64,000 nt of DNA from Escherichia phage JES2013: the sequence record KC690136. The stretch is one strand, 5' to 3'. The position numbers and the translations under genes were made by a program. Below the pieces are notes generated by a model, which worked only from the letters and a program-made list of their open reading frames with translations, searched no databases and was not told the DNA's origin. This document shows positions 25,792-38,544 of this stretch, piece after piece (within the stretch, counting starts at the first letter, position 1; each line of letters opens with the position of its first letter).

Positions 25792-26913
25792 TTAGATAAA
25801 ACGCTTGAACATAGAAGGTGATGAGATTGATGGAATCACACAAGGAAGTGCTACCTCCTCTTTCTCCAGGAAATTAATCGCAGAAGCTACACAGTCGGCC
25901 CAGTCGTCTTTCCTGTTAAATGTTGATCTTTCCCCGTTGAATTTTTCAAGTTCAGTCAGAAATGCTTCCAGAGTATCAGGATGGAAACTGGATTTTACAA
26001 TCCTAACCATTCCTTGTTGGGCAAGATTGGCAAAAGGTGAGAACCTTGTCAGTTTAGATTTGTTGGAAGGCATTGGGTCTTCTTCAACCCTAAACCCTTC
26101 GGCGAGCAAGGATCTGGAGGATGTTAAGAACTCACTCTTACCTGCCTGACCGGGGTCCACAGAGAATACGATTATACAATCATCACCATCAAACTGCGCC
26201 TGTTTCCTGATGATCACATCTCGTTCACCAGCCTTTTTACAGAACTTGCCTTCCAGACCTGTGGAATACCTCCCGTCATCCACGTTCTCAGGACAATAAT
26301 CACCGGACAGGTAATAAAAGCCGTCGCTATCTTTACTTACCTTAACACTGGCGGTAAAGTCAGGAAATTTATTACCGGAAGTTCTCTCGGTTCCTGCCTT
26401 ATCCCATGCCCTGCAAGATACTGATCCAAGGGGTACTCTATCGGCATCACGAAGGAAAGATCTTTGAAAATAGTTTGCACCCTCAGGCTTTGCAAACCAG
26501 TTGCCATGAAGAAGCTGGGCTTTTTCAAGCTCGGGCAGACCTTCAAGAAAAGCAAGGTATTCTGGGTTGTCTCTCAAGCAGACAGGATTATCGAAGATTG
26601 TTGCGCCTATAAACGAGAATGACAACGGTCTTGGCTTGATCTCTACACCAAGTCCGTTAACCGTGGTGTATTTCTCTATCAACTCTTCCTTAGAGTCTCC
26701 CCAAATAAATTCACCGTCGCGTCGGATAAAATATCTTTTCTTACCGCATTTCTCCGGATCTGGATACCCTTCATCGTCCAACCACCATCTAACCAGTTTG
26801 GCAAGCATGTGTTCTGAATCTGGGTTACAGCTGATAACCATTCTTGATGGATACTTTGACTGAGATCGCAGACGAGACATCAGGTAGTCTATCTGTTCCC
26901 ATTCGAATTGTGT
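25792..26913 (-). CDS. terL: terminase large subunit, exon 2 (nuclease domain)
   Basis: C-terminal DDWADCVASAINF motif typical of terminase nuclease domain; in-frame stop only at 26917-26919, so exon can begin at 26913. Confidence 0.65.
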   Translation of the reverse strand, partial: TQFEWEQIDYLMSRLRSQSKYPSRMVISCNPDSEHMLAKLVRWWLDDEGYPDPEKCGKKRYFIRRDGEFIWGDSKEELIEKYTTVNGLGVEIKPRPLSFSFIGATIFDNPVCLRDNPEYLAFLEGLPELEKAQLLHGNWFAKPEGANYFQRSFLRDADRVPLGSVSCRAWDKAGTERTSGNKFPDFTASVKVSKDSDGFYYLSGDYCPENVDDGRYSTGLEGKFCKKAGERDVIIRKQAQFDGDDCIIVFSVDPGQAGKSEFLTSSRSLLAEGFRVEEDPMPSNKSKLTRFSPFANLAQQGMVRIVKSSFHPDTLEAFLTELEKFNGERSTFNRKDDWADCVASAINFLEKEEVALPCVIPSISSPSMFKRFI

Positions 26914-27796
26914 CGTTTATGTTCAGGCAAGGTCGCTAGTCTTGCCCCGCCATTTTCAGGCAGCTGCATGTCTCCATGCAGACCAGACTATATCTTATGA
27001 ATGTGTAAATACTCTGCCGCTCTAAGAATAGTTTCCTCATCTTCTTGGAAGAAACCTAAAGCTCTGTTGCATTTATCACAAAGCAACCCTCTTACAGCAC
27101 CAGTTTTATGGTCATGATCAACACAAAAGAAATCTCTGTACCCTTGCGTCCTATACTCATCGAGAGATATTCTACAAATGGCACACTTATGATCTTGATC
27201 TGAGAGTAGACGATAGTATTCATCTTTTGTTATGTGAAATTTCTTCTCAATCTGATAAAACTTTTCACACATCTTACACCTGTTCGTAACCAGATATACT
27301 TTACCATAGTCACGTTTTGTGTAAAAACTATCAGCGAGCATACTTTCATGACAAGATTTGCATTCAAAAAGTTCACCTTTCTTCAGCAAGTCTTGAATAA
27401 ATAATGCTGCGTCATCTCTCTTAACCATATTTTTGTTTTTACGAGATCCACCCTTCCTGTAGTACATATAGCATTCCTTGCATGTACCTGAGTATCCATC
27501 CTTGCTCTTAGATGATAAAAAGAAATCATCAATAGGTAGAACTCTTTGGCAATCCATACATTTTTTAGTATTACACATTCACCCTCCCGTTTCGAATCGC
27601 TTGATTCTACGTCTTTCGACTAGTCGTTGAACGTTCATCCTCTCGGATGCTTCGCTGCGGATTATCTAAACTAACACACTGTTACCATACCTTCGATCTC
27701 TCTTCGAAGCCTCTATCATGTTACCATGACAGGTTGGTGGTGTCAATAATAAAGATTTCCCCGCAATTAGGGAGGTTTTACGAGAGCTACAAATTA
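26914..27796 (-). mobile_element. group I intron interrupting terL, with embedded HNH homing endonuclease ORF
   Basis: Minus-strand conserved elements P (AATTGCGGGGAAA, ~27768-27756), Q (AATCCGCAGCG, ~27663-27653), R (GTTCAACGACTAGTC, 27632-27618), S (AAGATATAGTCT, ~26996-26985); candidate guide GCTCTC pairs with exon end GAGGGT; exact 3' boundary uncertain. Confidence 0.7.
26988..27578 (-). CDS. HNH homing endonuclease (Endonuclease VII family) encoded within the intron
   Basis: 196 aa; CxxC pairs plus DHDHKTGAVRGLLCDKCNRALG motif (T4 Endo VII-like); strong RBS GGGAGGG; stop codon lies inside the S element. Confidence 0.75.
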   Translation of the reverse strand: MCNTKKCMDCQRVLPIDDFFLSSKSKDGYSGTCKECYMYYRKGGSRKNKNMVKRDDAALFIQDLLKKGELFECKSCHESMLADSFYTKRDYGKVYLVTNRCKMCEKFYQIEKKFHITKDEYYRLLSDQDHKCAICRISLDEYRTQGYRDFFCVDHDHKTGAVRGLLCDKCNRALGFFQEDEETILRAAEYLHIHKI

Positions 27797-28222
27797 ACCC
27801 TCATCGAAGCAAACCATGGTGTACTCAAGCCCTTGATGGTTAAGCTTATCTTGTACATACTCCATGTGGCAGTATTTTACAACAGCTCCCTTTTTGCTTC
27901 TATCCCACTTGCCAGTGTTCGGATCAAACCGTGGAAAAATGAACTTATGATCCTTCTCTCTGAACTTTGGCTTAATGTTTTCAGGCAGATCGCTATAAAT
28001 AGCTACTGCTTTAGGCCATAGTCCACCCTCACCTTCCAACTGTGGGGTTGTTCTTCGGAACATAACCACAGAGCTGTGGGGGTCATCAATAATTTTAAGT
28101 GGCATCAACTGCAAGAGAAACGACTTGCCAGACCCTGCGGCACCGCCGATTACCAAAATATCTGCATCGTTTTCGAGGATCATCTTCTGCTTTTCAGAAC
28201 ACGGTCCGTAAATCTTAGACAT
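27797..28222 (-). CDS. terL: terminase large subunit, exon 1 (ATPase domain)
   Basis: Walker A GGAAGSGKS and Walker B MVCFDE; ORF stops right after Walker B with TAA that would be the first intron nucleotides. Confidence 0.7.
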
Positions 28223-28904: not shown

Positions 28905-29009
28905 TTTAAGGCTCCAGAAACGAAAAAACCCCGCAGCTATGCAGCTAACGGGGCGGGTTAAAATTGAGTAACCTAAATAGATCGAAACTAACTAAAAGGA
29001 GACTAATAC

Positions 29010-29279
29010 TTATCGAGGCACTCGGTGGATGATTCTAACAGTAACTGCATTTTCATTCATCAAGTATGCATCTACATCTCTGTAAATATAAAACTTCTGC
29101 TCACTATCAACAACACAAGCTACTGCCCCTTCAGAGTTGTCTTCAAAAAAGACCACCACTGCATCGCAGCTGAGTTCATGATATGACTCTCGAAGATTTA
29201 CAGCCAGAGGATTGAAATCGTCACGAAAATCTACGGTATGGGTTGGATTTACACGCTCTACAATTTTAAGTGTATACAT
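29010..29279 (-). CDS. hypothetical protein
   Basis: Track ORF 29010..29369 trimmed to internal Met (MYTLKIV) because the upstream part overlaps tRNA-Pro. Confidence 0.4.
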   Translation of the reverse strand: MYTLKIVERVNPTHTVDFRDDFNPLAVNLRESYHELSCDAVVVFFEDNSEGAVACVVDSEQKFYIYRDVDAYLMNENAVTVRIIHRVPR

Positions 29280-29325
29280 TTTAAAGGTTCCTTTTGTTTG
29301 TATATGTTTAAAGTATAACTGAAAG

Positions 29326-29402
29326 TGGTCTCCACGGAGTGATTCGAACACTCGACCTCCTGATCCCAAATCAGGCGCTCTACCAAGCTGAGCTACGCGG
29401 AG
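29326..29402 (-). tRNA. tRNA-Pro (anticodon UGG)
   Basis: Manual cloverleaf: acceptor CTCCGCG/CGTGGAG, D-arm GCTC/GAGC, anticodon loop TTTGGGA, T-arm GAGTG TTCGAAT CACTC, encoded CCA. Confidence 0.7.
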
Positions 29403-29413
29403 TATTCATTATT

Positions 29414-29488
29414 TGGTGGCCCTGGGTGGAATTGAACCACCGTCTGGCGATTATGAGTCGCTTGCTTGAACCTTCCAGCTACAGGGCC
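29414..29488 (-). tRNA. tRNA-Met (anticodon CAU; could be initiator, elongator or Ile2)
   Basis: Manual fold: acceptor GGCCCTG/CAGGGCC, anticodon loop CTCATAA, T-arm GGTGG TTCAATT CCACC, encoded CCA. Confidence 0.65.
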
Positions 29489-29489
29489 A

Positions 29490-29565
29490 TGGTGCTGATG
29501 GCAGGACTTGAACCTGCAACCTATTGATTACAAATCAATTGCACTACCAATTGTGCTACATCAGC
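29490..29565 (-). tRNA. tRNA-Thr (anticodon UGU)
   Basis: Manual fold: acceptor GCTGATG/CATCAGC, D-arm GCAC/GTGC, anticodon loop TTTGTAA, T-arm GCAGG TTCAAGT CCTGC, encoded CCA. Confidence 0.65.
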
Positions 29566-29570
29566 AAAAA

Positions 29571-29661
29571 GGTGCTAGGTGATGGAGTCGAACCACCCGA
29601 ATCGCAATGATAACAGATTTACAGTCTGCCCCGCTACCCCTACGGAATTAACTCACCTAAA
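29571..29661 (-). tRNA. tRNA-Tyr-like (anticodon GUA), atypical 5' half; 5' boundary uncertain
   Basis: Anticodon arm GCAGA CTGTAAA TCTGT identical in core to bacterial tRNA-Tyr; canonical T-arm GGTGG TTCGACT CCATC; long variable region; acceptor/D-arm pairing not resolved by hand. Confidence 0.45.
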
Positions 29662-29787
29662 TACTAATATTTAAATTCTTTTTAAAATAGCTAGTGTTCT
29701 CACCACTAACTATGAGGTATCGGTAAAGTGGTTACCGCCACTTGCCGAAGATTTACTCTGCTAAAGTAAGCTACATTAAAAAGAACT

Positions 29788-29862
29788 TGGCACCCCGTAC
29801 TGGACTCGAACCAGTGTCAACGGCTTAGAAGGCCGCTGCTTTATCCACTAAGCTAACAGGGC
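29788..29862 (-). tRNA. tRNA-Arg (anticodon UCU)
   Basis: Manual fold: acceptor GCCCTGT/ACGGGGT with G-U pairs, anticodon loop CTTCTAA, T-arm ACTGG TTCGAGT CCAGT, encoded CCA. Confidence 0.65.
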
Positions 29863-29920
29863 ACTGGGTGGCTTTCTTTTACACCTTAGCCGCCAGAAAA
29901 GGTGGGAGACCATGTTTACA

Positions 29921-29949
29921 ATATTACACTGTTAAGCAAAGTTTGTCAA
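29921..29949 (-). promoter_or_regulatory. sigma70-like promoter for tRNA cluster
   Basis: Minus-strand TTGACA (29949-29944), 17-nt spacer, TAATAT (29926-29921), ~55 nt upstream of tRNA-Arg 5' end. Confidence 0.55.
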
Positions 29950-29958
29950 GAAAATATT

Positions 29959-30297
29959 TTAGCTATTGCTAACAGGCTGTATTTCTGTGGTAAACGGCAT
30001 AAAAGGTGCTGGTTTTTCAGCCTCTTCTACTACCACCTCTTCCTCTTCACCAAACATCTCATCATATTCTTCCTGCATTCGGTCTGCCTTATCAAGAACA
30101 TACTCTGCAATGCTTTGACGAATATTTTGTTTGGTTTTCGGGTCCAACATCAGCTCTCTTAAAACTTTGTGAGCTTCTGGAACCATCGCTATAAAAGATT
30201 CCTTCATATCAAGGATGTTCTTCTCTAGCTGAATGGCGTTGGACTCCTCTTTCAGAGGTCTGCCTCTACGGCGACGCTTTTTAGTTGTATCCGCCAT
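29959..30297 (-). CDS. hypothetical basic/acidic protein with AT-hook-like motif
   Basis: Track ORF trimmed to Met with GGAGG RBS (MADTTKKRRRRGRPLKEE...); RGRP motif; acidic C-terminus. Confidence 0.5.
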   Translation of the reverse strand: MADTTKKRRRRGRPLKEESNAIQLEKNILDMKESFIAMVPEAHKVLRELMLDPKTKQNIRQSIAEYVLDKADRMQEEYDEMFGEEEEVVVEEAEKPAPFMPFTTEIQPVSNS

Positions 30298-30645
30298 GTT
30301 TCCTCCATTATCACGTGATAGGTGGATTTTATCACAGCAAATACTGATTGTCAAGTTCGCCGCAGGGTGGTGTTCCCTGCGACTTGTCCAGCGTCCTGGA
30401 CCAGCAAGACCCAACAAGTGGGTTTTCCAGCTATACCCATTACCGCGCTCAGGCTCGACCTTATTACAGGTTGGCTGGGGTCACATCGTCATGTGCTGGC
30501 TGCCCCTACCATTTTAAGTGTGGTGCACTATCAAGCCCTCTAAGGGGAACTCAGTCTTCTCCGAACCCTGTTTCAAAGCATCCGGAGATAAAGCCATCAA
30601 ATTCATCTTTAAATTGGATATTCATCATGATACACGAAAACAACC

Positions 30646-30888
30646 TCATTGTAAAGCGCAAATAAATAAAACATACTTAATTTGTTTGTTATCAGGCTCA
30701 GGGTAGAAGTAGAAGATCTTGCTATCACCGATCTGAACACCACCATCCCAACAGCATAGCCCATAACCTGTATTCATACAAGCTAAGTCGTTGGCAAAAT
30801 CTATTGCATCATCCAGTGCACGAAATTCACCTTCATCTTCTAAATAATCCTCATTCATGGAACGAAAAACGAGCTTAACCTTAAACAT
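30646..30888 (-). CDS. hypothetical protein
   Basis: 80-aa ORF. Confidence 0.35.
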   Translation of the reverse strand: MFKVKLVFRSMNEDYLEDEGEFRALDDAIDFANDLACMNTGYGLCCWDGGVQIGDSKIFYFYPEPDNKQIKYVLFICALQ

Positions 30889-30964
30889 AGCATTACCTGT
30901 AGACCTCGTAAGTTAAAATTGTAGCACATCATATTGCAGATCTTATCAGGTAACACTGTTTTTG

Positions 30965-31174
30965 TCAACAGATTCCGGCCTTATCTCGCCTGTCTGCGTA
31001 TTCTTTAATCGCAACCTCATCTGCATTAGTGACCAGGTCTTCAAAGTAACTCTCAAGCTCCTCGTCAATGTCAGGAGACCAGCTCTTTTTCCTGTCAGTG
31101 TGAATTGCAGACTTGTTGAACTTATTACAGTTCTTTGCTACCGGGTTATTCATTAAGCGCTCCTCAGCGTTCAT
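30965..31174 (-). CDS. hypothetical protein
   Basis: 69-aa ORF overlapping upstream gene end. Confidence 0.35.
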   Translation of the reverse strand: MNAEERLMNNPVAKNCNKFNKSAIHTDRKKSWSPDIDEELESYFEDLVTNADEVAIKEYADRRDKAGIC

Positions 31175-31742
31175 AGTAAATTTTATTTAACATTACCTCA
31201 TCCTTTGCAGAAAGAATACCGAGATATGCATCACCGAATCTACCTGCAACAACCTCTGCATGATACATTACTTCGTTAATATCGTCAAGAGTGATAACTG
31301 GATGACCGTATCTCTCTGAGTATTGTCTCAGAGTGCGATGTAGAGAGTCATCATCATAGGCAGACTTTTTAATATCACAAACACGACGAATAGCCTTGAT
31401 GTCGAAAAACCCTGTACGATACCAACCAAGAAAAAGGTTTCGTGCAGTGTCAACATCTACATCAATACCATCAAGAACCTTATCTACAAGATAGCTATCA
31501 TCCTTTGGACTCGCTTCCTTAGTGCGGATATAGTTGCCATCTTTTCCAGGTGACAGCTCCTTCTCATCACCAGCCTTCATGTCATCATTTGGCGGGGTTA
31601 GCCACTTATCCGGATGCTTACGATCACGAGCGTTAGAATGATTACGCTGGAAACCTGGCTGCCACTTGAAAGTTTTCTCCATCTGTTCTTCATTCTGATA
31701 ACGTTTTGCAATCTTTTCACGGTCATCTTTGCGTGAACTCAT
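31164..31742 (-). CDS. hypothetical protein
   Basis: 192-aa ORF with GAGGAGG RBS upstream of ATG. Confidence 0.5.
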   Translation of the reverse strand: MSSRKDDREKIAKRYQNEEQMEKTFKWQPGFQRNHSNARDRKHPDKWLTPPNDDMKAGDEKELSPGKDGNYIRTKEASPKDDSYLVDKVLDGIDVDVDTARNLFLGWYRTGFFDIKAIRRVCDIKKSAYDDDSLHRTLRQYSERYGHPVITLDDINEVMYHAEVVAGRFGDAYLGILSAKDEVMLNKIYYER

Positions 31743-32246
31743 AGCTGCCTCCTCTTCAAGTTATAGAAAAACTCACTGTATCGCTTTGTAACGAGCTTTT
31801 CTATCAAACTGGTGCGATTGCATTACTTGGTATGGTTTATATAGCTGTGGAGCGATTTAGGGTCCTTCTTGTCCGTTTCCACACATAAACTTTATCCAAA
31901 CTCGCGCGGGAGGCTCTCAACCGACTCCTTACGGCGCTGGCAAGCTTTCGTCGGTGGCCCACATTAGTGCTCGGCCTTTGGCCTGCGCTATCGCTTCGCT
32001 CCCACACATGTTAACAGACCTGCATGTATGCACTTCTGTTATTGTGTGCACTATGGAGGCCCGGCATCTCGCCCCTCGTAGGCGAGTGCCAATGAAGGGC
32101 CGACACTACCCATAGTAAGTAATAAATTTAAAACATGGTACTTAGGATCTAATATATTCTACATAAGTTAAGTATATGTACTTTAGTACCATAAGTACTA
32201 GATCTTTTATTTTTTATTATTCAGTTATTTTAGTTATATTCTTTAT

Positions 32247-32311
32247 GTGTCCGTATCACGGACAGTTAGTGTCCGTATTACGGGCAGTAGTGTCCGTATC
32301 ACGGACAGTTA
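32247..32311. repeat. three tandem copies of a palindromic ~16-bp site (GTCCGTATCACGGAC) at 22-bp spacing; iteron/operator-like array
   Basis: Copies at ~32249-32265, 32271-32287 (variant GTCCGTATTACGGGC), 32293-32309; preceded by AT-rich tract 32111-32245. Confidence 0.6.
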
Positions 32312-32382
32312 GTGGACTCTGTTCCAGAGCGAACATAAAACATACGAATCCTTATAGTACAGATATTTAAGTTTTTACTGGT

Positions 32383-32733
32383 CTAACCAGTTGTTGACAT
32401 CCGAATAACCTCTTCTGGTGGCAAAACTTTGGAAAATGTGCATCTTTTACCTCTCCCTTGTGTGGATGTTTCAACCACCCCCGCACACTCTAAAGTTTTA
32501 ACGCACGCTGCTGCTTTTGTTTTCTTTATCCCAACATCTGCTGCAATTTTCCTTGTGCTTGGTGTGAAGCGTGAATTTCCTCCAAGCTTATACCAGTTGT
32601 GCAGGTAGCAGTATACAATCTTGTCATACAAGTCAAGAACAACAACCTCTCCAGTTGTGTCATTCAAAACTTTTGACATAGACAGTATTTCAAGGGGGAC
32701 TTTAAGATATAGCAGCTTATCCCCATCTTTCAT
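32383..32733 (-). CDS. putative helix-turn-helix DNA-binding protein
   Basis: 116 aa; segment STRKIAADVGIKKTKAAACVKTLECAGVVE resembles an HTH/winged-helix; adjacent to the palindromic repeat array. Confidence 0.4.
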   Translation of the reverse strand: MKDGDKLLYLKVPLEILSMSKVLNDTTGEVVVLDLYDKIVYCYLHNWYKLGGNSRFTPSTRKIAADVGIKKTKAAACVKTLECAGVVETSTQGRGKRCTFSKVLPPEEVIRMSTTG

Positions 32734-32780
32734 ATCTCCTGATTCTCCTTGTGTGGCAATTTTCTTTAAAATAGCAGGGA

Positions 32781-33335
32781 TTACTCCCCGCTGTCAATAG
32801 CAAAACTCATTGCAATACGGTATGCTTCTTCTAATGGTAAGAGTCTCCCCCACACATCCCAACCGACATCAAGCTGCCTGCCAAACAACTGTTGTGTGGT
32901 TCCGTGAGCATGACCGAACAGTTGGACTGATCCATGAGGCTTTCTGTTCCACTTTGCAAACTGGTAATGGCTCATACAGATCAAATTCTTGTTGTGGCGA
33001 AGCTCGTAATAATCTACAACCTCGTGATAGAACTCTTTCATAATTCTGACAGTCGTCCTTGTGTCATGGTTGCCACGAACAAGAATAATATGTCCGTTCA
33101 ACATATTTAGAATATCCGGGAGTAAGTTGTTGATATTCTTATCATTAGTGCACGCAATATCTCCCAAGTGGAACACAGTGTCTGCAGGTGACACAACAGA
33201 GTTCCACTCGGCGATGATTCCTGCATTCATACTGTCAAGATTGTGATCATACTGAGATCTGTGTTTTTGACATGAATCAAACTCCATGACCCGCTGGTGG
33301 AGAAAGTGTGTGTCGCTTGTTACAAAGTATTTCAT
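32781..33335 (-). CDS. metallophosphoesterase (calcineurin-like phosphatase)
   Basis: Motifs DxH (VTSDTHF), GDxxD-like (HLGDIA), GNHD (RGNHD), GHxH (FGHAHG); start trimmed to Met preceded by GAGGA RBS. Confidence 0.65.
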   Translation of the reverse strand: MKYFVTSDTHFLHQRVMEFDSCQKHRSQYDHNLDSMNAGIIAEWNSVVSPADTVFHLGDIACTNDKNINNLLPDILNMLNGHIILVRGNHDTRTTVRIMKEFYHEVVDYYELRHNKNLICMSHYQFAKWNRKPHGSVQLFGHAHGTTQQLFGRQLDVGWDVWGRLLPLEEAYRIAMSFAIDSGE

Positions 33336-33342
33336 ACATTCC

Positions 33343-33753
33343 TCATTTAAGTTTAATGCAGTTTTTAAGCTGGCGTTCCATACGATCCACAACCCTGTCT
33401 GGAACATCATGAATGCTTTTATTACCGTGGCGGTTTTCAACCACGATCACGGTATAACTATACCCATGACTGATTGCCATGTCAACATATTCCTGCACAT
33501 GTTTTTCTTTTGTAAACGTATTACTTACCACGATACGGTCGTATCCCATACGCATCATATCTTCTACGTTATCTTTGCACCATTTTGCTGCGAGTGTTAC
33601 TTTACTTGCATCCCAGTTGTAATTGCCGTCATCGTCATACCAGAACATGTCGTTCTCAAAATGTGGATACAGACCTTCTAAAGATAGCGCATTTGCCAGT
33701 GTTGATTTGCCAGACCCTGGCAGACCACGCACGATATATAGCATTTTAGACAT
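33343..33753 (-). CDS. P-loop kinase, polynucleotide kinase-like
   Basis: Walker A GLPGSGKST at N-terminus similar to T4 Pnk kinase domain (GCPGSGKST); start at Met after GGAGG RBS. Confidence 0.55.
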   Translation of the reverse strand: MSKMLYIVRGLPGSGKSTLANALSLEGLYPHFENDMFWYDDDGNYNWDASKVTLAAKWCKDNVEDMMRMGYDRIVVSNTFTKEKHVQEYVDMAISHGYSYTVIVVENRHGNKSIHDVPDRVVDRMERQLKNCIKLK

Positions 33754-33871
33754 AGCAATCCTCCGTTTTAATTTTAATGATAGTATACCTAACTGTTTTG
33801 TTAATTTCAAGTGTTGACACTAGGTTATTTGTGTGGCAGGATAGACTGACAAAATGACAAATGAGGAACGT

Positions 33872-34789
33872 ATGATGAAGTATTTTAATGCAGACGATCT
33901 AGTTGACAAAGGTCTTGTAACCAGCAGATATTACCCAGATCTTGGATTAAAGATTTATAAATATGCCAGAAAAGTATTTTACAACAATTTATGGCATTTG
34001 TCCCCTCGTTTGCTGGAGTGCCGAGGCATTGTTGTCGGTAATGAAGGAAATGTTGTGGCATGGCCCTTCACAAAAGTGTTTAACTTGGGAGAAAATCACA
34101 CCAACCTGCCTGACAATAAGCTTGTGACGGCGGTAGAGAAAAAGAACGGATTCCTCGGTGTGGTGTCATCTCATAAAGGTGAACTATTGTTCTCAACAAC
34201 CGGATCTCTTGATTCCCCATATTGTAACCTCGCAAAGGAAACCATCCGGGAGCAATGTGGTAATTTAGATCTTATCAAGAAGGTTATGGGCAATGAAAAC
34301 ATGACATTCATGTTTGAAATTTGTCACCCTTCAGATCCGCATATTGTTCAGGAAGATCATGGCGCATATTTGATAGGTTGCAGATATAATGATTCTGGAA
34401 TAATGCTACCAGAAGCAGCTTTAGATGGGATTGCCAAATACCTTGGCGCAAAACGTCCTCACACTGTGCGTGAAATTCCGTTCAGCTATGCAAAAGAATT
34501 GGCTGCAGAAACAAGAGGTGAAGGGTATATGATTCGTAAGCCTTACTACCCTTATGATCTGCAGCTGAAGATCAAGTCTCCATACTATCTGGCACGGAAG
34601 GCCGTAATGAGGGGTAAAGCTTGGAAGATTTGGGATGATGATATCTTTAAACGTGTTGACGAAGAGTTTTACGGCATGGTAAACTTCATTCGTAGCAATT
34701 ACACAGAAGATGTGTGGAACTGCCTACTGGAGCAGGAACGCAGGGAGATACTCGACCACTATTTCCACAACGAGGACTATATGCAATGA
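33872..34789 (+). CDS. putative RNA ligase (Rnl1/tRNA-ligase-like nucleotidyltransferase)
   Basis: Candidate ligase motifs: I KKNG (VEKKNGFLG), IV EGYMIRK, V LQLKIK; start chosen at ATG with GAGGA RBS (track ORF begins at 33854). Confidence 0.5.
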   Translation: MMKYFNADDLVDKGLVTSRYYPDLGLKIYKYARKVFYNNLWHLSPRLLECRGIVVGNEGNVVAWPFTKVFNLGENHTNLPDNKLVTAVEKKNGFLGVVSSHKGELLFSTTGSLDSPYCNLAKETIREQCGNLDLIKKVMGNENMTFMFEICHPSDPHIVQEDHGAYLIGCRYNDSGIMLPEAALDGIAKYLGAKRPHTVREIPFSYAKELAAETRGEGYMIRKPYYPYDLQLKIKSPYYLARKAVMRGKAWKIWDDDIFKRVDEEFYGMVNFIRSNYTEDVWNCLLEQERREILDHYFHNEDYMQ

Positions 34790-35136
34790 AGAAGTTGATT
34801 GTGTGGCTGGATGATTTGAGAGATCCGTCAAATTATGGACTCCCAGACGCTGTTTGGCTGAAGAATTCCTCCGAGTTTATGGATTTTATTAACGATAAGG
34901 GAAAGCTCTACAGACGCGTTTCTGAGTGGCATATGGACAACGACCTAGGAGAAGTATTCGAAGGATATGATTGCCTATCCATGTTGGAGGAAAAATTTGT
35001 ATTCGGTAAGCCTCCCGTGGTTGACAACGTGAAGATTTTCGTACATACTTCTAATCCATCAGCGGCTCGTAAATTCATGCTTGCAGCTGACTCGTTTAAA
35101 AAGTTTGGAATAGAGATTAAACAAAACATCTACTGA
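34786..35136 (+). CDS. hypothetical small alpha/beta protein (possible receiver-like fold), partner of Sir2 gene
   Basis: 116 aa; ATGA overlap with upstream ligase gene; LIVWLDD and VHTSNP segments; no confident family assignment. Confidence 0.35.
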   Translation: MKKLIVWLDDLRDPSNYGLPDAVWLKNSSEFMDFINDKGKLYRRVSEWHMDNDLGEVFEGYDCLSMLEEKFVFGKPPVVDNVKIFVHTSNPSAARKFMLAADSFKKFGIEIKQNIY

Positions 35137-35144
35137 GGACACTT

Positions 35145-35906
35145 ATGCGACGACTGATTATTATCTCCGGTGCTGGTTTGAGCGCTGAATCTGGTATTCC
35201 CACTTTCCGATCTGGTAGCACTGCAATGTGGGAGAATTTCAGCATCGATGAGGTGTGCAACATCCACACCTTTGCCAAGAACTACTATAAGGTGCATGAC
35301 TTTTACAATGCACGTCGCGTAGCTCTGGGCAGTGTTGATCCTAACCTTGCACATCTTCGGATCGCTGAGTGGTATTCCCGCTGGTCTGGTCGTGTGATCA
35401 ACCTTACCACCAATGTAGATGATTTGCTGGAGCGTGCTGGTGTAAAACATGAAGATATTTTACATGTCCACGGGTATTTGCCTGAAATCACCTACGAAGA
35501 TGCTGAAGGTAATGATGTAATTAAAAATATCGGATACACGGAGGTAGATACAGGCAAGTATACCTGGGTTAAGCCCAATGTAGTGTTCTTCGGTGAGGTT
35601 GCTCCTAAGTATACAGACATGTATGACCTGTTGACATCTCTCACAAGCAATGATATGGTGATCCTGGTAGGTTGTTCTAACACAGTTATTAATTTTAACT
35701 GGGAATTGTTTCCTGCTACTTGTAAAGGCACAAAACTGCTGATTGTAAACAAGTATGATTCGCAGAGTGCAGATGGAAGTGGCATTTCACGTAGCGACCT
35801 TTATCAATATGAGGATCGCGGGATCCCTGTATGGTTTAACGGTGCTGTTGACGCTTTCTCTGATAAAGTATTTATTGAAACTGTAGAAAACTTTATGGAA
35901 CTTTAA
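35145..35906 (+). CDS. Sir2-family (sirtuin-like) NAD-binding protein lacking zinc ribbon
   Basis: Motifs GAGLSAESGIPTFR, catalytic-His region HVHGYL, FFGE; no Cys4 zinc-ribbon between them. Confidence 0.7.
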   Translation: MRRLIIISGAGLSAESGIPTFRSGSTAMWENFSIDEVCNIHTFAKNYYKVHDFYNARRVALGSVDPNLAHLRIAEWYSRWSGRVINLTTNVDDLLERAGVKHEDILHVHGYLPEITYEDAEGNDVIKNIGYTEVDTGKYTWVKPNVVFFGEVAPKYTDMYDLLTSLTSNDMVILVGCSNTVINFNWELFPATCKGTKLLIVNKYDSQSADGSGISRSDLYQYEDRGIPVWFNGAVDAFSDKVFIETVENFMEL

Positions 35907-35919
35907 AAGGAGACCTTTA

Positions 35920-36633
35920 ATGCTGAATACTAAACTGATCGACAACCTGGAAAAACTGTCTCAGCCTGAAAACTACCTTTGGTCTGCCAACTGGGTGGAA
36001 AACTGGAACCGTGTGGCAGCTAAGGTGAAAAAATCATACACACCATTCGAATTACAGCTTAGCTTCATTGAGGAAGAGTTCAATGAAGTTTTGGAAGAGC
36101 TGGAGAAAGGTGATGGTGGAGATCACTTGCTAAAAGAGGCCTGCGATCTTCATGTTGTCACAAGTTATGCCGCTTATCTTGTTAATGACAATCACGAAAA
36201 GTGGTCAAACCTGTTTGATAATCCACGAGGTATTAAGTTCAAGATTGGTGAGTTCTATGATACACTGATCGCTGCGAAAAACACCTCTAAGCAAAGAGCG
36301 TCTGCTTACCGCTTAGCAGAGTTGTCAACAGCTTTGCTGTTCCAGCTTCGCGGCGATGTGTGCGGGATGATGCGTAAGGTTCTCAAATCGAATGACAGCA
36401 AGTTTGCACGGGTCAACCATCTACGGTATTCACACGGTGCCAGTGCAGATATGCCTGCTGAACAACTCATCGAGTTGGAGATTAAAGATCTTGAGCGACG
36501 CTTTGATGGTCGATATGAAGGTTTTGTTGCTAAGGAAGAATTCTACAACGGTAATAAAGTTATCATATTCCTTGACAGTAAAGGTAAGATCATGAAGCCT
36601 TCAAGCTTCAAGGATGTAACAGAGTATATTTAA
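35920..36633 (+). CDS. putative MazG-like nucleotide pyrophosphohydrolase domain protein
   Basis: 237 aa; acidic helix pattern FIEEEFNEVLEELEKGDGGDHLLKEACDL resembling all-alpha NTP pyrophosphatase metal-binding motif; AAAGGAGA RBS. Confidence 0.4.
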   Translation: MLNTKLIDNLEKLSQPENYLWSANWVENWNRVAAKVKKSYTPFELQLSFIEEEFNEVLEELEKGDGGDHLLKEACDLHVVTSYAAYLVNDNHEKWSNLFDNPRGIKFKIGEFYDTLIAAKNTSKQRASAYRLAELSTALLFQLRGDVCGMMRKVLKSNDSKFARVNHLRYSHGASADMPAEQLIELEIKDLERRFDGRYEGFVAKEEFYNGNKVIIFLDSKGKIMKPSSFKDVTEYI

Positions 36634-36666
36634 CAACATAGCCGGGATCACCCGGCTTTACTTGTT

Positions 36667-37005
36667 GTGGAAAGTATGCAAGTGAGGCAGATAGTTATGT
36701 ACAAGCACTCTAGAGATCTTGAAAACGATGCTGTGTTTGGGGATCAGATGAAAGAGTTGGTTAAACTCATAGGCAGGATAGAGGATAAGTTTGACACTAA
36801 GATCTACATCGACAGCAAAGTATTCAACCACAAAATATGGACAAATCTGTGTGTTGGACTACATGGAGATAAAGATGTTGTAAATTTAGTTGTAATTAGG
36901 TTCATAGTGTGGCAGAATAAAACTATAAATTATTACGATCCACACCTGCTTGTTTACCCGATAAAAGACCTATTAGATAAGGAGGACTGCAATGCCGTTA
37001 TTTAA
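36667..37005 (+). CDS. hypothetical protein
   Basis: 112-aa ORF. Confidence 0.4.
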   Translation: MESMQVRQIVMYKHSRDLENDAVFGDQMKELVKLIGRIEDKFDTKIYIDSKVFNHKIWTNLCVGLHGDKDVVNLVVIRFIVWQNKTINYYDPHLLVYPIKDLLDKEDCNAVI

Positions 37006-37261
37006 TCTTGCTAAACCTGTAGAAGCACACCAGTTTGACGGAAGCTCTTCATCAGTATCTGATCTGCAACGGTGGATTGATACAGGTGTGTTTACATCGT
37101 CACCTGTTCGGACCAGAGATCTTCGTCGTATGTGTGAGCTTGTAGAGCCGTTTGGTAACCTAGTCTTGTACCAGGGTGATTGGCTTGTTGATTTTATGGG
37201 GGACTGGTTGGTAATGAGTAAAGAAGAGATGTTTAAAATTTTTAAGGAAGAGGTAGAGTAA
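36992..37261 (+). CDS. hypothetical protein
   Basis: 89-aa ORF overlapping neighbours. Confidence 0.4.
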   Translation: MPLFNLAKPVEAHQFDGSSSSVSDLQRWIDTGVFTSSPVRTRDLRRMCELVEPFGNLVLYQGDWLVDFMGDWLVMSKEEMFKIFKEEVE

Positions 37262-38544
37262 TGCATCAAATCAAAACAACACTGTACGCACTGAACAAAG
37301 ATGGCAGCTACCAACAGTGGAAAGTATTCACGGATGGTGATAAGGTTATCGTAGAGTTTGGCAAGCTTGATGGTAAACTGCAATACAAAGAGACGATCTG
37401 CACACCTAAGAACGTAGGTCGTGCCAACGAGACTACAGCTGAGCAACAGGCCGAGCTTGAGGCTATCAGTAAGTGGGAAAAACAAGTCCGTCTGGGGTAT
37501 GTTGAAAACATGGAAGATTGCGAGCAGGGTGTTGACCTTTTACCCATGCTGGTGCATGACTATCTGAAGCGTGGCAAGGCACTTAAATTACCTTGCTGGA
37601 TCTTGCGTAAGTTAGATGGCCTTCGTCTGCTTGTTGTTTTCCAAAATGGTGAGCCTAAATTTATTTCCCGTGGTAATAAGTCCTACCCTATTCAAGGAAA
37701 GCTTTTAGAGCAACTTCGTTCTTTCCATTCTACCACTGGGATTAAACAACTTGATGGGGAACTATACATTCATGGTCTTCCTTTGCAGAAAATAGTGTCT
37801 CTTGCTAAACGGTGGCGCACACAGGAAGAGATTCAGGCCGAGATCGATAAAGACTATGAGGCAGATAAAAAACGCCGTCATGCCGCAATTAAGGCAGGCT
37901 TATCAACATACAAAAACTTCAACAAGGTAGATATTCCTGTCGATGTTGATCCTGTTCGTGATGATTTGCGTTACGGTGGGTACTGTAGCTACGATCTGGA
38001 GTATCACATTTTTGATATTCCTAGCGACAAGGTGTGGTGGGATCCAGAAACAGAGTCTGGACGCTGCAAGGATCTTATGGATGCAGAGGATACCGTTACC
38101 ACTCTGATGCTTGACCATATCAAGGTTGTTGACGCAGAGCTTGCGTACACAGTTGATCATTGCGAAGAATCTGTTGGTATATTCATGTCCGAAGGATATG
38201 AAGGTACCATTATGCGTAACTTCTGTGGTAAATATGAGTACGGTCAGCGAACATCTGAAGCATTGAAATGGAAAAAGTTCAACGACGCAGAGGTGAAAGT
38301 TATTGACGTTGAGAAAGATAAGAATGATGAAGGTGTTCTTATCTGTGTTGACAAGGAAGGTATTGTTGTTAAAATGAAGATGAAAGGTACGCACGAGGAG
38401 CGTAGCTATGACAGAATGCAGGAAATGATCGGCAAGTTTGTCACCTTCAAATATCAAGCAAGGACAGAAGACAACAACTACCAATTCCCTGTCGGTATCT
38501 GCGTCCGAAATGTTAACCCAGACACTTGGGAGGTGCTGGAATAA
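37261..38544 (+). CDS. ATP-dependent DNA ligase
   Basis: Motif I RKLDGLR (KxDGxR), motif III LDGELYIHG, motif IV EGTIMR, motif V LKWKKF, C-terminal OB-like region; extra N-terminal ~80-aa domain. Confidence 0.7.
   Translation: MHQIKTTLYALNKDGSYQQWKVFTDGDKVIVEFGKLDGKLQYKETICTPKNVGRANETTAEQQAELEAISKWEKQVRLGYVENMEDCEQGVDLLPMLVHDYLKRGKALKLPCWILRKLDGLRLLVVFQNGEPKFISRGNKSYPIQGKLLEQLRSFHSTTGIKQLDGELYIHGLPLQKIVSLAKRWRTQEEIQAEIDKDYEADKKRRHAAIKAGLSTYKNFNKVDIPVDVDPVRDDLRYGGYCSYDLEYHIFDIPSDKVWWDPETESGRCKDLMDAEDTVTTLMLDHIKVVDAELAYTVDHCEESVGIFMSEGYEGTIMRNFCGKYEYGQRTSEALKWKKFNDAEVKVIDVEKDKNDEGVLICVDKEGIVVKMKMKGTHEERSYDRMQEMIGKFVTFKYQARTEDNNYQFPVGICVRNVNPDTWEVLE

Follow-up and report, generated by a model that had tools for sequence, protein, structure and literature searches.

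A split kinase, phosphoesterase and ligase gene set proposed to repair RNA breaks in rV5-like coliphages

Bacterial immunity often strikes at transfer RNAs (tRNAs) and other RNAs, as seen for PrrC, RloC, PARIS, retron/PtuAB, Cas13 and HEPN toxins, and to our knowledge the T4 proteins Pnkp and Rnl1 are the only proven repair answer of a phage. A locus in Escherichia phage JES2013 (KC690136; the window analysed is a stretch of 64,000 nucleotides) raises the question of whether a second such answer exists in a different form, as it encodes a P-loop kinase and a metallophosphoesterase side by side and an RNA ligase-like protein divergently from them. This split gene set is common, with more than 500 kinase-bearing viral contigs and 51 ligase lineages in a single scan, and occurs in a tractable group of Escherichia coli phages for which there is a saturated transposon library. 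It bears on how generally phages counter host defence by repairing RNA. An initial annotation, made from the letters of the window, had taken the three genes for a candidate tRNA repair module that might counter host defence. The three open reading frames (ORFs) and every motif it quoted are present, and gene coordinates and strands confirm that the kinase and phosphoesterase genes are adjacent and read away from the ligase gene.

Our analysis favours a split healing-and-sealing cassette of rV5-like phages that repairs RNA breaks with T4/Pnkp-like chemistry, a reading to which we assign a probability of roughly 0.6. Computation establishes the protein families, folds, intact catalytic residues, gene linkage and gene fusions, and published data the dispensability of the genes; we infer the enzyme activities, RNA (tRNA) as the substrate and counter-defence as the purpose. 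The cassette probably reverses cuts by host metal-independent ribonucleases, such as anticodon nucleases and HEPN RNases, whose cuts yield one terminus with a 2′,3′-cyclic phosphate and another with a 5′-OH. The 136-amino-acid Pnk-like kinase would phosphorylate the 5′-OH end, and the metallophosphoesterase, encoded 7 nt downstream, would remove the cyclic or 3′-phosphate to leave a 3′-OH. The Rnl1-fold ligase would then adenylylate itself at Lys96, activate the 5′-phosphate and reseal the strand.

All three proteins score above threshold in Pfam (Metallophos, AAA_33 and RNA_lig_T4_1), and PHROGs calls them phosphoesterase, ATPase/polynucleotide kinase and RNA ligase. Coordinates are those of the whole window, ligase residues are counted from the opening of the ORF at 33854, and native numbering of the kinase is +1. 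The ligase matches RNA_lig_T4_1 (PF09511) with 55.9 bits against a cut-off of 28.3, over profile positions 1-227 of 227, and carries the motifs KKNG (K96), EGYMIRK (E223, G224) and LKIK (K239, K241). A single-sequence search of the PDB gave nothing useful, and a homologue profile was needed. With 31 homologues, the profile reached T4 Rnl1 (2c5u, E = 1.3e-12) over T4 residues 51-249, the whole nucleotidyltransferase domain. The segments K96-x-N98-G99, F154-E155, E223-G224 and K239-x-K241 align with T4 K99EDG, E159, E227/G228 and K240/K242, and invariant phage residues stand opposite T4 R54, K75, F77, K99, G102, E159, E227, G228, K240 and K242. Nucleotidyltransferase motifs I, III, IV and V are invariant in 81 of 81 sequences. 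In the same set R57 and K74 never vary and position 76 holds F or Y, and these three align with the ATP-contacting residues Arg54, Lys75 and Phe76/77 of T4 Rnl1, for which the roles of Arg54, Lys75 and Phe76 have been confirmed (PMC6379707). By fold, T4 Rnl1 is also the nearest among the RNA ligase clades. The Pfam score and the invariant K96 answer a reservation of the initial annotation, namely that the protein might belong to an unrelated family or lack the motif I lysine. The T4 RnlA equivalog model of NCBIfam (TIGR02308) scores it at 38.8 bits, far under the cut-off of 242.25, and the ligase would accordingly be placed, by sequence, as a relative of T4 RnlA rather than an orthologue.

The kinase matches AAA_33 with 42.8 bits against a cut-off of 27 and has the P-loop GLPGSGKST. 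In 30 homologues the P-loop R8-G9-L-P11-G12-S-G14-K15-S-T is invariant, as is an E-N-R-H segment among the homologues, and in a profile alignment to 1ly1 the invariant D34 falls on the Asp of T4 'NRDDY', the T4 general base Asp35. A single-sequence PDB search again returned nothing useful, and the sequence profile matches Pnkp1, T4 Pnk, PSTK and the Clostridium thermocellum Pnkp kinase weakly (E = 1e-4 to 4e-3). Fold comparison, using a model with a predicted local distance difference test (pLDDT) score of 87, is much clearer than the sequence profiles. T4 Pnk is the nearest structural match, and polynucleotide and tRNA kinases outrank all small-molecule kinases, with shikimate kinase scoring 9.3 and deoxynucleoside monophosphate (dNMP) kinases at most 8.5. 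The ranking thus speaks against a dNMP or shikimate-type kinase, which the initial annotation had allowed for.

The phosphoesterase scores 30.4 bits against the Metallophos cut-off of 21.5, is also above threshold for Metallophos_2, and matches phrog_547 at 2e-51. Its motifs are DxH (D8, H10), GD (G58, D59), GNHD (88-91), H123 and GHxH (141-144). The metal-binding residues D8, H10, G58, D59, G88, N89, H90, H123, G141, H142 and H144 show 90% conservation or more among 45 homologues, and a subset of 19 sequences has them without exception. We propose this enzyme as the 3′-end healer, which would remove 2′,3′-cyclic phosphate or 3′-phosphate.

Whether the three proteins act together is addressed by their linkage across viral lineages. 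When viral contigs were scanned with the profile of the ligase, 80 loci at 35-89% identity were obtained. Six-frame ORFs were collected up to 7 kb from the ligase, and dereplication at 80% ligase identity left 51 lineages. Within this distance a kinase occurs in 45 of the 51 lineages and a phosphoesterase likewise in 45. Both are nearly always co-directional with the ligase and often adjacent to it, in the order MPE-LIG-KIN or KIN-LIG-MPE (metallophosphoesterase, MPE; ligase, LIG; kinase, KIN). As an internal control, the helix-turn-helix (HTH) gene at 32383-32733 and a 192-amino-acid ORF at 31164-31742 recur in only 1 of the 80 loci, and compared with these flanking genes, the recurrent linkage indicates that the grouping of the trio is not chance. 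Furthermore, in two lineages (13 loci) kinase and ligase are fused in one protein of 420-432 amino acids, its N-terminal part being AAA_33 and its C-terminal part RNA_lig_T4_1. No substitute 3′-healing enzyme was detected by Pfam beside the fusions, whose neighbours include a DNA ligase, an Rnl5-type RNA ligase, a phosphoribosyl pyrophosphate (PRPP)-synthetase-like protein and an exoribonuclease-like protein. Conserved neighbourhood and fusions both back a functional link between the three genes.

The reciprocal scan with the kinase profile reached at least 580 viral stretches. Among the best 80 loci, a phosphoesterase is present in 55, frequently about 30 nt downstream of the kinase, and an Rnl1-like ligase in 34 (32 of the 57 with at least 3 kb on both sides), while in one an Rnl5-type RNA ligase adjoins the kinase instead. 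Judged by these counts, kinase and phosphoesterase form a pair resembling a 'split Pnkp', in most cases accompanied by an Rnl1-like ligase of this kind. In three loci (L113, 8071-9312; L163, 8061-9308; L134, 8064-9551) a conserved ORF of 414-496 amino acids directly follows a kinase-phosphoesterase pair that has no Rnl1-like ligase nearby; it has no Pfam or PHROG match and no hhalign similarity to the ligase family. In several lineages that lack a sirtuin, a PRPP-synthetase-like gene (Pribosyltran_N) comes immediately downstream of the kinase or is close to the ligase (L025, 5799-6644; L040, 10591-11430), and similar N-termini are found in L011, L017, L019 and L032. These neighbours hint that the repair trio is recurrently tied to ribose-phosphate or nicotinamide adenine dinucleotide (NAD) metabolism. 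The small ORFs interleaved in other lineages have weak or no family matches (HD_4 below threshold; a domain of unknown function, DUF).

Published transposon data (HIDEN-SEQ preprint) are available for phage Bas54, whose proteins are 93-99% identical to those of the JES2013 stretch. On K-12, insertions hit 56 of 60 TA sites in the ligase gene, 33 of 36 in the kinase gene and 26 of 27 in the phosphoesterase gene, and all three are classed as non-essential, which fits an accessory role. The sirtuin and MazG-like genes that follow the ligase are non-essential as well, and the cREC gene between them and the ligase is 'intermediate'. These data bear on a further question. The PHROG and several GenBank records name the protein 'RNA ligase and tail fiber attachment catalyst', and on that view the ligase might mainly be a tail-fibre attachment factor like T4 gp63, with its enzymatic neighbours incidental. 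This name stems from T4, none of the catalytic residues varies, and the Bas54 orthologue tolerates insertions at 56 of 60 TA sites, unlike T4 rnlA, whose N-terminal catalytic domain does not tolerate them. We therefore reject the tail-fibre role, which is extremely improbable for a ligase that is non-essential in Bas54.

Several observations weigh against a cassette for RNA repair. The kinase has no Arg at D+3, the position of Arg38 in the T4 motif Asp35-x-x-Arg38, where the family consensus reads E-A-D-M-F-F; in T4 Pnk, Arg38 binds the substrate phosphate. Since P-loop, Asp and E-N-R-H are kept and this Arg has no counterpart, the kinase is a minimal, somewhat atypical member of the polynucleotide kinase clade. 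A 19-homologue profile of the phosphoesterase matched no Pnkp or lambda-phosphatase chain in the PDB. Among solved structures it has one close relative, aq_1665 of Aquifex (1xm7, E = 4.5e-23), an uncharacterised protein, with GpdQ a weak match (5e-4), so that the role in 3′-end healing is deduced from genomic context, and the protein lies outside the Pnkp/lambda-phosphatase subfamily. In the ligase, about 65 residues follow motif V, and a T4-type C-terminal tRNA-specificity domain is not evident. Profile alignments to T4 Rnl1 stop at T4 residue 249, and the C-terminal helices of the ligase are conserved inside the phage family. In T4 Rnl1 the C-terminal domain (approximately residues 255-374) confers specificity for the tRNA anticodon loop, and appended C-terminal domains define the RNA ligase clades in general (PMC6379707). 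Proximity of tRNA genes to the ligase (7 kb or less) is seen in only 19 of the 48 related loci, a comparison without a background control; we have dropped tRNA proximity as evidence and treat it as context. Lastly, none of the six Bas54 genes gains a conditional requirement on the uropathogenic E. coli strains CFE303 and CFE311, where mutants show no fitness loss (log2 fold change +0.1 to +0.4), and Bas54 can still be counter-selected with Cas13a (HIDEN-SEQ preprint), an RNase that is reported to cut tRNA anticodons. Counter-selection by Cas13a indicates that the cassette gives no blanket protection. In the same work the pseT orthologue of a T4-like phage was conditionally required on a clinical isolate (HIDEN-SEQ preprint), indicating that the assay can reveal RNA repair genes given the right host.

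Some of these points would also fit three neighbours of an early region that share no pathway, with only the ligase acting on RNA and the kinase and phosphoesterase acting on nucleotides or on signals such as immune second messengers or NAD metabolites. Of the solved structures, those nearest to the phosphoesterase belong to a glycerophosphodiesterase and a protein that is uncharacterised. The match of the kinase profile to Pnk sequences is weak (E about 1e-4) and the DxxR arginine is missing, an Rnl1-like ligase is absent from the surrounding 7 kb in 46 of the 80 loci centred on the kinase, and the sirtuin, MazG and PRPP-synthetase-like neighbours suggest nucleotide or NAD metabolism. We nevertheless consider independent neighbours unlikely, as kinase and ligase are fused at 13 loci, each partner is kept in 45 of 51 lineages over a range of 35-89% identity in which the remaining flanking genes are not retained, and the kinase fold ranks polynucleotide and tRNA kinases over all small-molecule kinases.

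An RNA repair cassette of this kind has been described before for the same phage genus. Iyer, Burroughs, Anantharaman and Aravind (2022, PMC9503650) defined a 'type 2' sirtuin-centred RNA repair neighbourhood with Escherichia phage V5 and Proteus phage Mydo as prototypes, comprising a sirtuin, a T4-like tRNA ligase, cREC, a nucleotide kinase, MazG and a calcineurin-like phosphoesterase, and proposed it to be an NAD-utilising RNA repair system. All six members are found here at 32781-36633, and the earlier prediction, made independently, speaks for the repair reading. The GenBank records of close relatives already name the genes RNA ligase, polynucleotide kinase and phosphoesterase. The cassette is thus an already annotated and published prediction, which our analysis confirms without revealing anything new; an experimental characterisation of its proteins was not found in the literature. 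In the earlier description the sirtuin is central and the phosphoesterase occasional, which is the opposite of our ligase-centred census. Sirtuin, cREC and MazG occur in the ligase neighbourhood of 7, 6 and 8 of the 51 lineages, and the lineages that have them are all Vequintavirus-like, with genomes of about 146 kb. In light of the 45 of 51 for each of the other two, the partners that stay constant are kinase and phosphoesterase, and the other three are a lineage-specific add-on. The initial annotation had confined the cluster to the trio, which is real, and had overlooked these co-oriented genes (Table 1).

The cREC gene begins within the end of the ligase gene, start and stop overlapping by 4 nt, and its product conserves the REC-type acidic residues D11, D12, D53 and D55, plus T90, S91 and K98. 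The sirtuin aligns with E. coli CobB (1s5p, E = 3e-21) including the catalytic His (H109), and is without Zn-ribbon cysteines, the CobB cysteine motif being absent. In the MazG-like protein E52, E53, E56 and D76 are conserved, and it matches phrog_671 without a Pfam match. Together, cREC, sirtuin and MazG-like enzyme probably handle cyclic-phosphate, 2′-phosphate or NAD-derived by-products. In related genera cREC lies between the ligase and kinase genes and the sirtuin directly after the kinase. The sirtuin has been proposed to remove 2′-phosphate in the manner of KptA (Iyer et al. 2022, PMC9503650).

The nature of the substrate also has to be weighed, since T4 Pnk-type kinases act on DNA too. 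The same enzymes might heal and seal DNA breaks with 3′-phosphate and 5′-OH ends instead of RNA. An ATP-dependent DNA ligase is encoded within 7 kb of the RNA ligase in 22 of 51 lineages (at 37261-38544 in JES2013), and the phosphoesterase has a weak match to NCBIfam PdeM, a ligase-associated DNA-damage endonuclease (19 bits against a cut-off of 150). This DNA ligase is, however, a separate gene that is linked less consistently than the trio, and cREC is defined by RNA repair contexts (PMC9503650), which makes a role in DNA repair very unlikely.

Taking RNA as the substrate, the repair cassette can be compared with the known systems. The three proposed chemical steps are the same as those by which T4 Pnkp (pseT) and Rnl1 (rnlA) repair PrrC-cut tRNA-Lys, and the likeness extends to an Rnl1-fold ligase with all motifs, a kinase closest to T4 Pnk, and genes that are dispensable on the laboratory host. 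In contrast to T4, the 136-amino-acid kinase stands alone without a HAD (DxDxT) domain, and the metallophosphoesterase would take the phosphatase part; the ligase is about 70 amino acids shorter, with KxNG in place of KEDG in motif I. The kinase protein consists of its kinase domain only, and no HAD hit was obtained in the nine neighbouring proteins scanned (31164-38544). On the points open to testing the initial annotation was correct, and the architecture differs from that of T4 in having three proposed activities on separate genes and a metallophosphoesterase in place of the HAD phosphatase. Bacterial Pnkp of the Clostridium thermocellum Pnkp-Hen1 system likewise uses a metallophosphoesterase instead of a HAD phosphatase. 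This system and the Capnocytophaga gingivalis Pnkp1-Rnl-Hen1 system contain the 2′-O-methyltransferase Hen1, whereas no methyltransferase family match was found among the nine proteins. Compared with fungal and plant Trl1 (LIG-KIN-CPD) and its partner Tpt1, an NAD-dependent 2′-phosphotransferase, the activities here are on separate genes, and both a CPD domain of the 2H type and a homologue of Tpt1/KptA are absent. The domain order also differs, being LIG-KIN in Trl1 and KIN-LIG in the fusions of the phage relatives, and the Trl1 C-terminal domain is not demonstrably matched.

The comparison with Trl1 nonetheless provides a lead beyond the existing literature. In the ligase domain of Trl1 from C. 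thermophilum, a sulfate that is taken as a mimic of 2′-PO4 is bound through the motif I residue Asn150 together with His227, Arg334 and Arg337, residues said to be unique to the Trl1 clade, in which an RNA 2′-phosphate is obligatory (PMC6379707). When genuine Trl1 sequences taken from PDB alignments were compared with the phage family by hhalign, the two aligned over 170 columns (probability 83%, E = 9e-6), placing N98 on Asn150 and H163 on His227, the latter with phage 'FEICxPSDPHIV' opposite Trl1 'AE(L/Y)CDDxFEEHIL'. T4 Rnl1 differs at both places, with KEDG and TNRIV (Asp and Ile/Arg). None of 81 sequences deviates at N98, H163, K249 or R253, and R253 stands at +12 from the second motif V lysine, as does Arg337, which is a match by spacing only.

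These residues raise the possibility that the phages use a route like that of Trl1 and Tpt1, in which the ligase would need or accept a 3′-OH,2′-PO4 end. The cyclic phosphate would be opened to this end by cREC or the metallophosphoesterase, the 2′-phosphate at the junction would be removed with NAD+ by the sirtuin or host KptA, and cREC, MazG or the phosphoesterase would clear the ADP-ribose cyclic-phosphate by-product. The interleaving of cREC and sirtuin with ligase and kinase genes in related genera, and the proposal of the sirtuin as a KptA analogue (Iyer et al., PMC9503650), are in line with this route. On the other hand, about 45 of the 51 lineages keep the Trl1-like residues without sirtuin or cREC nearby, hhalign slices past motif V are unreliable against Trl1 (probability 3.6%), and with the widespread phosphoesterase partner, complete phosphate removal would be simpler. 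A mixed profile of phage and T4 ligases did not reach Trl1 in the PDB. We also know of no sirtuin that dephosphorylates RNA, which weighs against the route as well. On balance, we regard Trl1-like repair as a tentative possibility, and the wider idea that the rV5-type ligase family is the viral counterpart of fungal Trl1, engaging a 3′-OH,2′-PO4 end through the four invariant residues, while in Vequintaviruses the adjacent cREC would serve as cyclic phosphodiesterase and the Zn-less sirtuin would take off the 2′-phosphate with NAD+, as similarly doubtful. If true, a coliphage would encode a complete 'eukaryote-style' RNA repair route with the first sirtuin acting on RNA, and a natural source of 2′-phosphorylated RNA would be suggested for the bacterial KptA/Tpt1 homologues. 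The Trl1-like residues therefore pose the question of whether bacteria and phages make and resolve 2′-phosphate RNA junctions.

Table 1. Features of the proposed repair locus and its surroundings in the JES2013 window
Feature	Position	Strand	Remarks
Metallophosphoesterase	32781..33335	-	184 amino acids; annotated ATG start, not the TTG-extended ORF reaching 33440
Minimal P-loop polynucleotide-kinase-like protein	33343..33753	-	136 amino acids; proposed 5′-OH kinase
Divergent intergenic control region, kinase/ligase	33754..33871		Consensus matches only
Rnl1-fold ATP-dependent RNA ligase	33872..34789	+	About 305 amino acids, ORF from 33854; proposed sealing enzyme
cREC (cyclic-phosphate-processing receiver-like) protein	34786..35136	+	116 amino acids; Pfam cREC_REC PF20274, 1.6e-14
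Sirtuin (class III, CobB-like)	35145..35906	+	253 amino acids; Pfam SIR2, 7e-28
MazG-like nucleotide pyrophosphohydrolase candidate	35920..36633	+	237 amino acids; phrog_671, 5e-22
Terminator-like hairpin	36640..36657	+	7-bp GC-rich stem, then T-rich tail; ends the ligase-cREC-sirtuin-MazG unit
HTH_36/DUF6945 protein	32383..32733	-	Downstream of the phosphoesterase; own promoter-like site 32797-32768
Phage tRNA cluster (Pro-UGG, Met/Ile-CAU, Thr-UGU, Arg-UCU)	29326..29862	-	ARAGORN and Rfam; context only

The locus is shared among close relatives. The 2.2 kb around the trio are 100% identical to KP869102.1 (Escherichia coli O157 typing phage 4, a Vequintavirus, rV5-like) and 95-99% identical to more than 100 further Vequintaviruses. 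The ligase probably starts at the ATG at 33872 or 33875, with a GAGGA ribosome-binding site upstream at 33863-33867. Between the kinase and ligase genes, a promoter-like site TTGAAA-17-TATACT lies on the minus strand at 33810-33782, the same site being a predicted promoter in the annotation of phage Gotham, and a TTGACA is found on the plus strand at 33813-33818. The two sites and the GAGGA are matches to a consensus only. The GC skew flips sign at about 33800, where the cumulative skew has its minimum at this divergent promoter region, indicating that leftward and rightward transcription units switch there. The hairpin that follows the MazG-like gene is likewise labelled a terminator in the Gotham record. 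Beyond the phosphoesterase, the HTH_36/DUF6945 protein goes under 'replication initiation protein' in PHROGs but under 'transcriptional regulator' in GenBank, and its gene falls in the 'intermediate' class of the Bas54 transposon data (HIDEN-SEQ preprint).

The four tRNA genes lie about 2.9 kb from the phosphoesterase gene, and an Rfam scan of 29000-37000 found no structured RNA besides them. At 29571-29657 on the minus strand, a tRNA-like sequence of 87 nt combines the body of tRNA-Tyr (GUA) with a 3′ end like that of Bas54 tRNA-Lys. It has a mismatched acceptor stem and is called by neither ARAGORN nor Rfam, and Bas54 has separate tRNA-Tyr and tRNA-Lys(UUU) genes at the corresponding place. 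From this it seems that tRNA-Lys was lost by deletion between two T-arms, leaving a chimeric pseudo-tRNA. PrrC/PARIS and retron/PtuAB-type defences act on Lys and Tyr tRNAs. The Bas54 tRNA-Lys(UUU) itself (L083, 9583-9679) is 97 nt long with an unusually long insert after the anticodon arm, which is odd for a class I tRNA.

Further from the locus, the gene for the terminase large subunit is split (about 26880-28222, minus strand). Its N-terminal piece occupies 27794-28222, the other piece ends near 26880, and between the two lies a gene for an endonuclease VII / homing endonuclease (about 26988-27578); the Bas54 annotation gives the terminase gene as a two-piece join.

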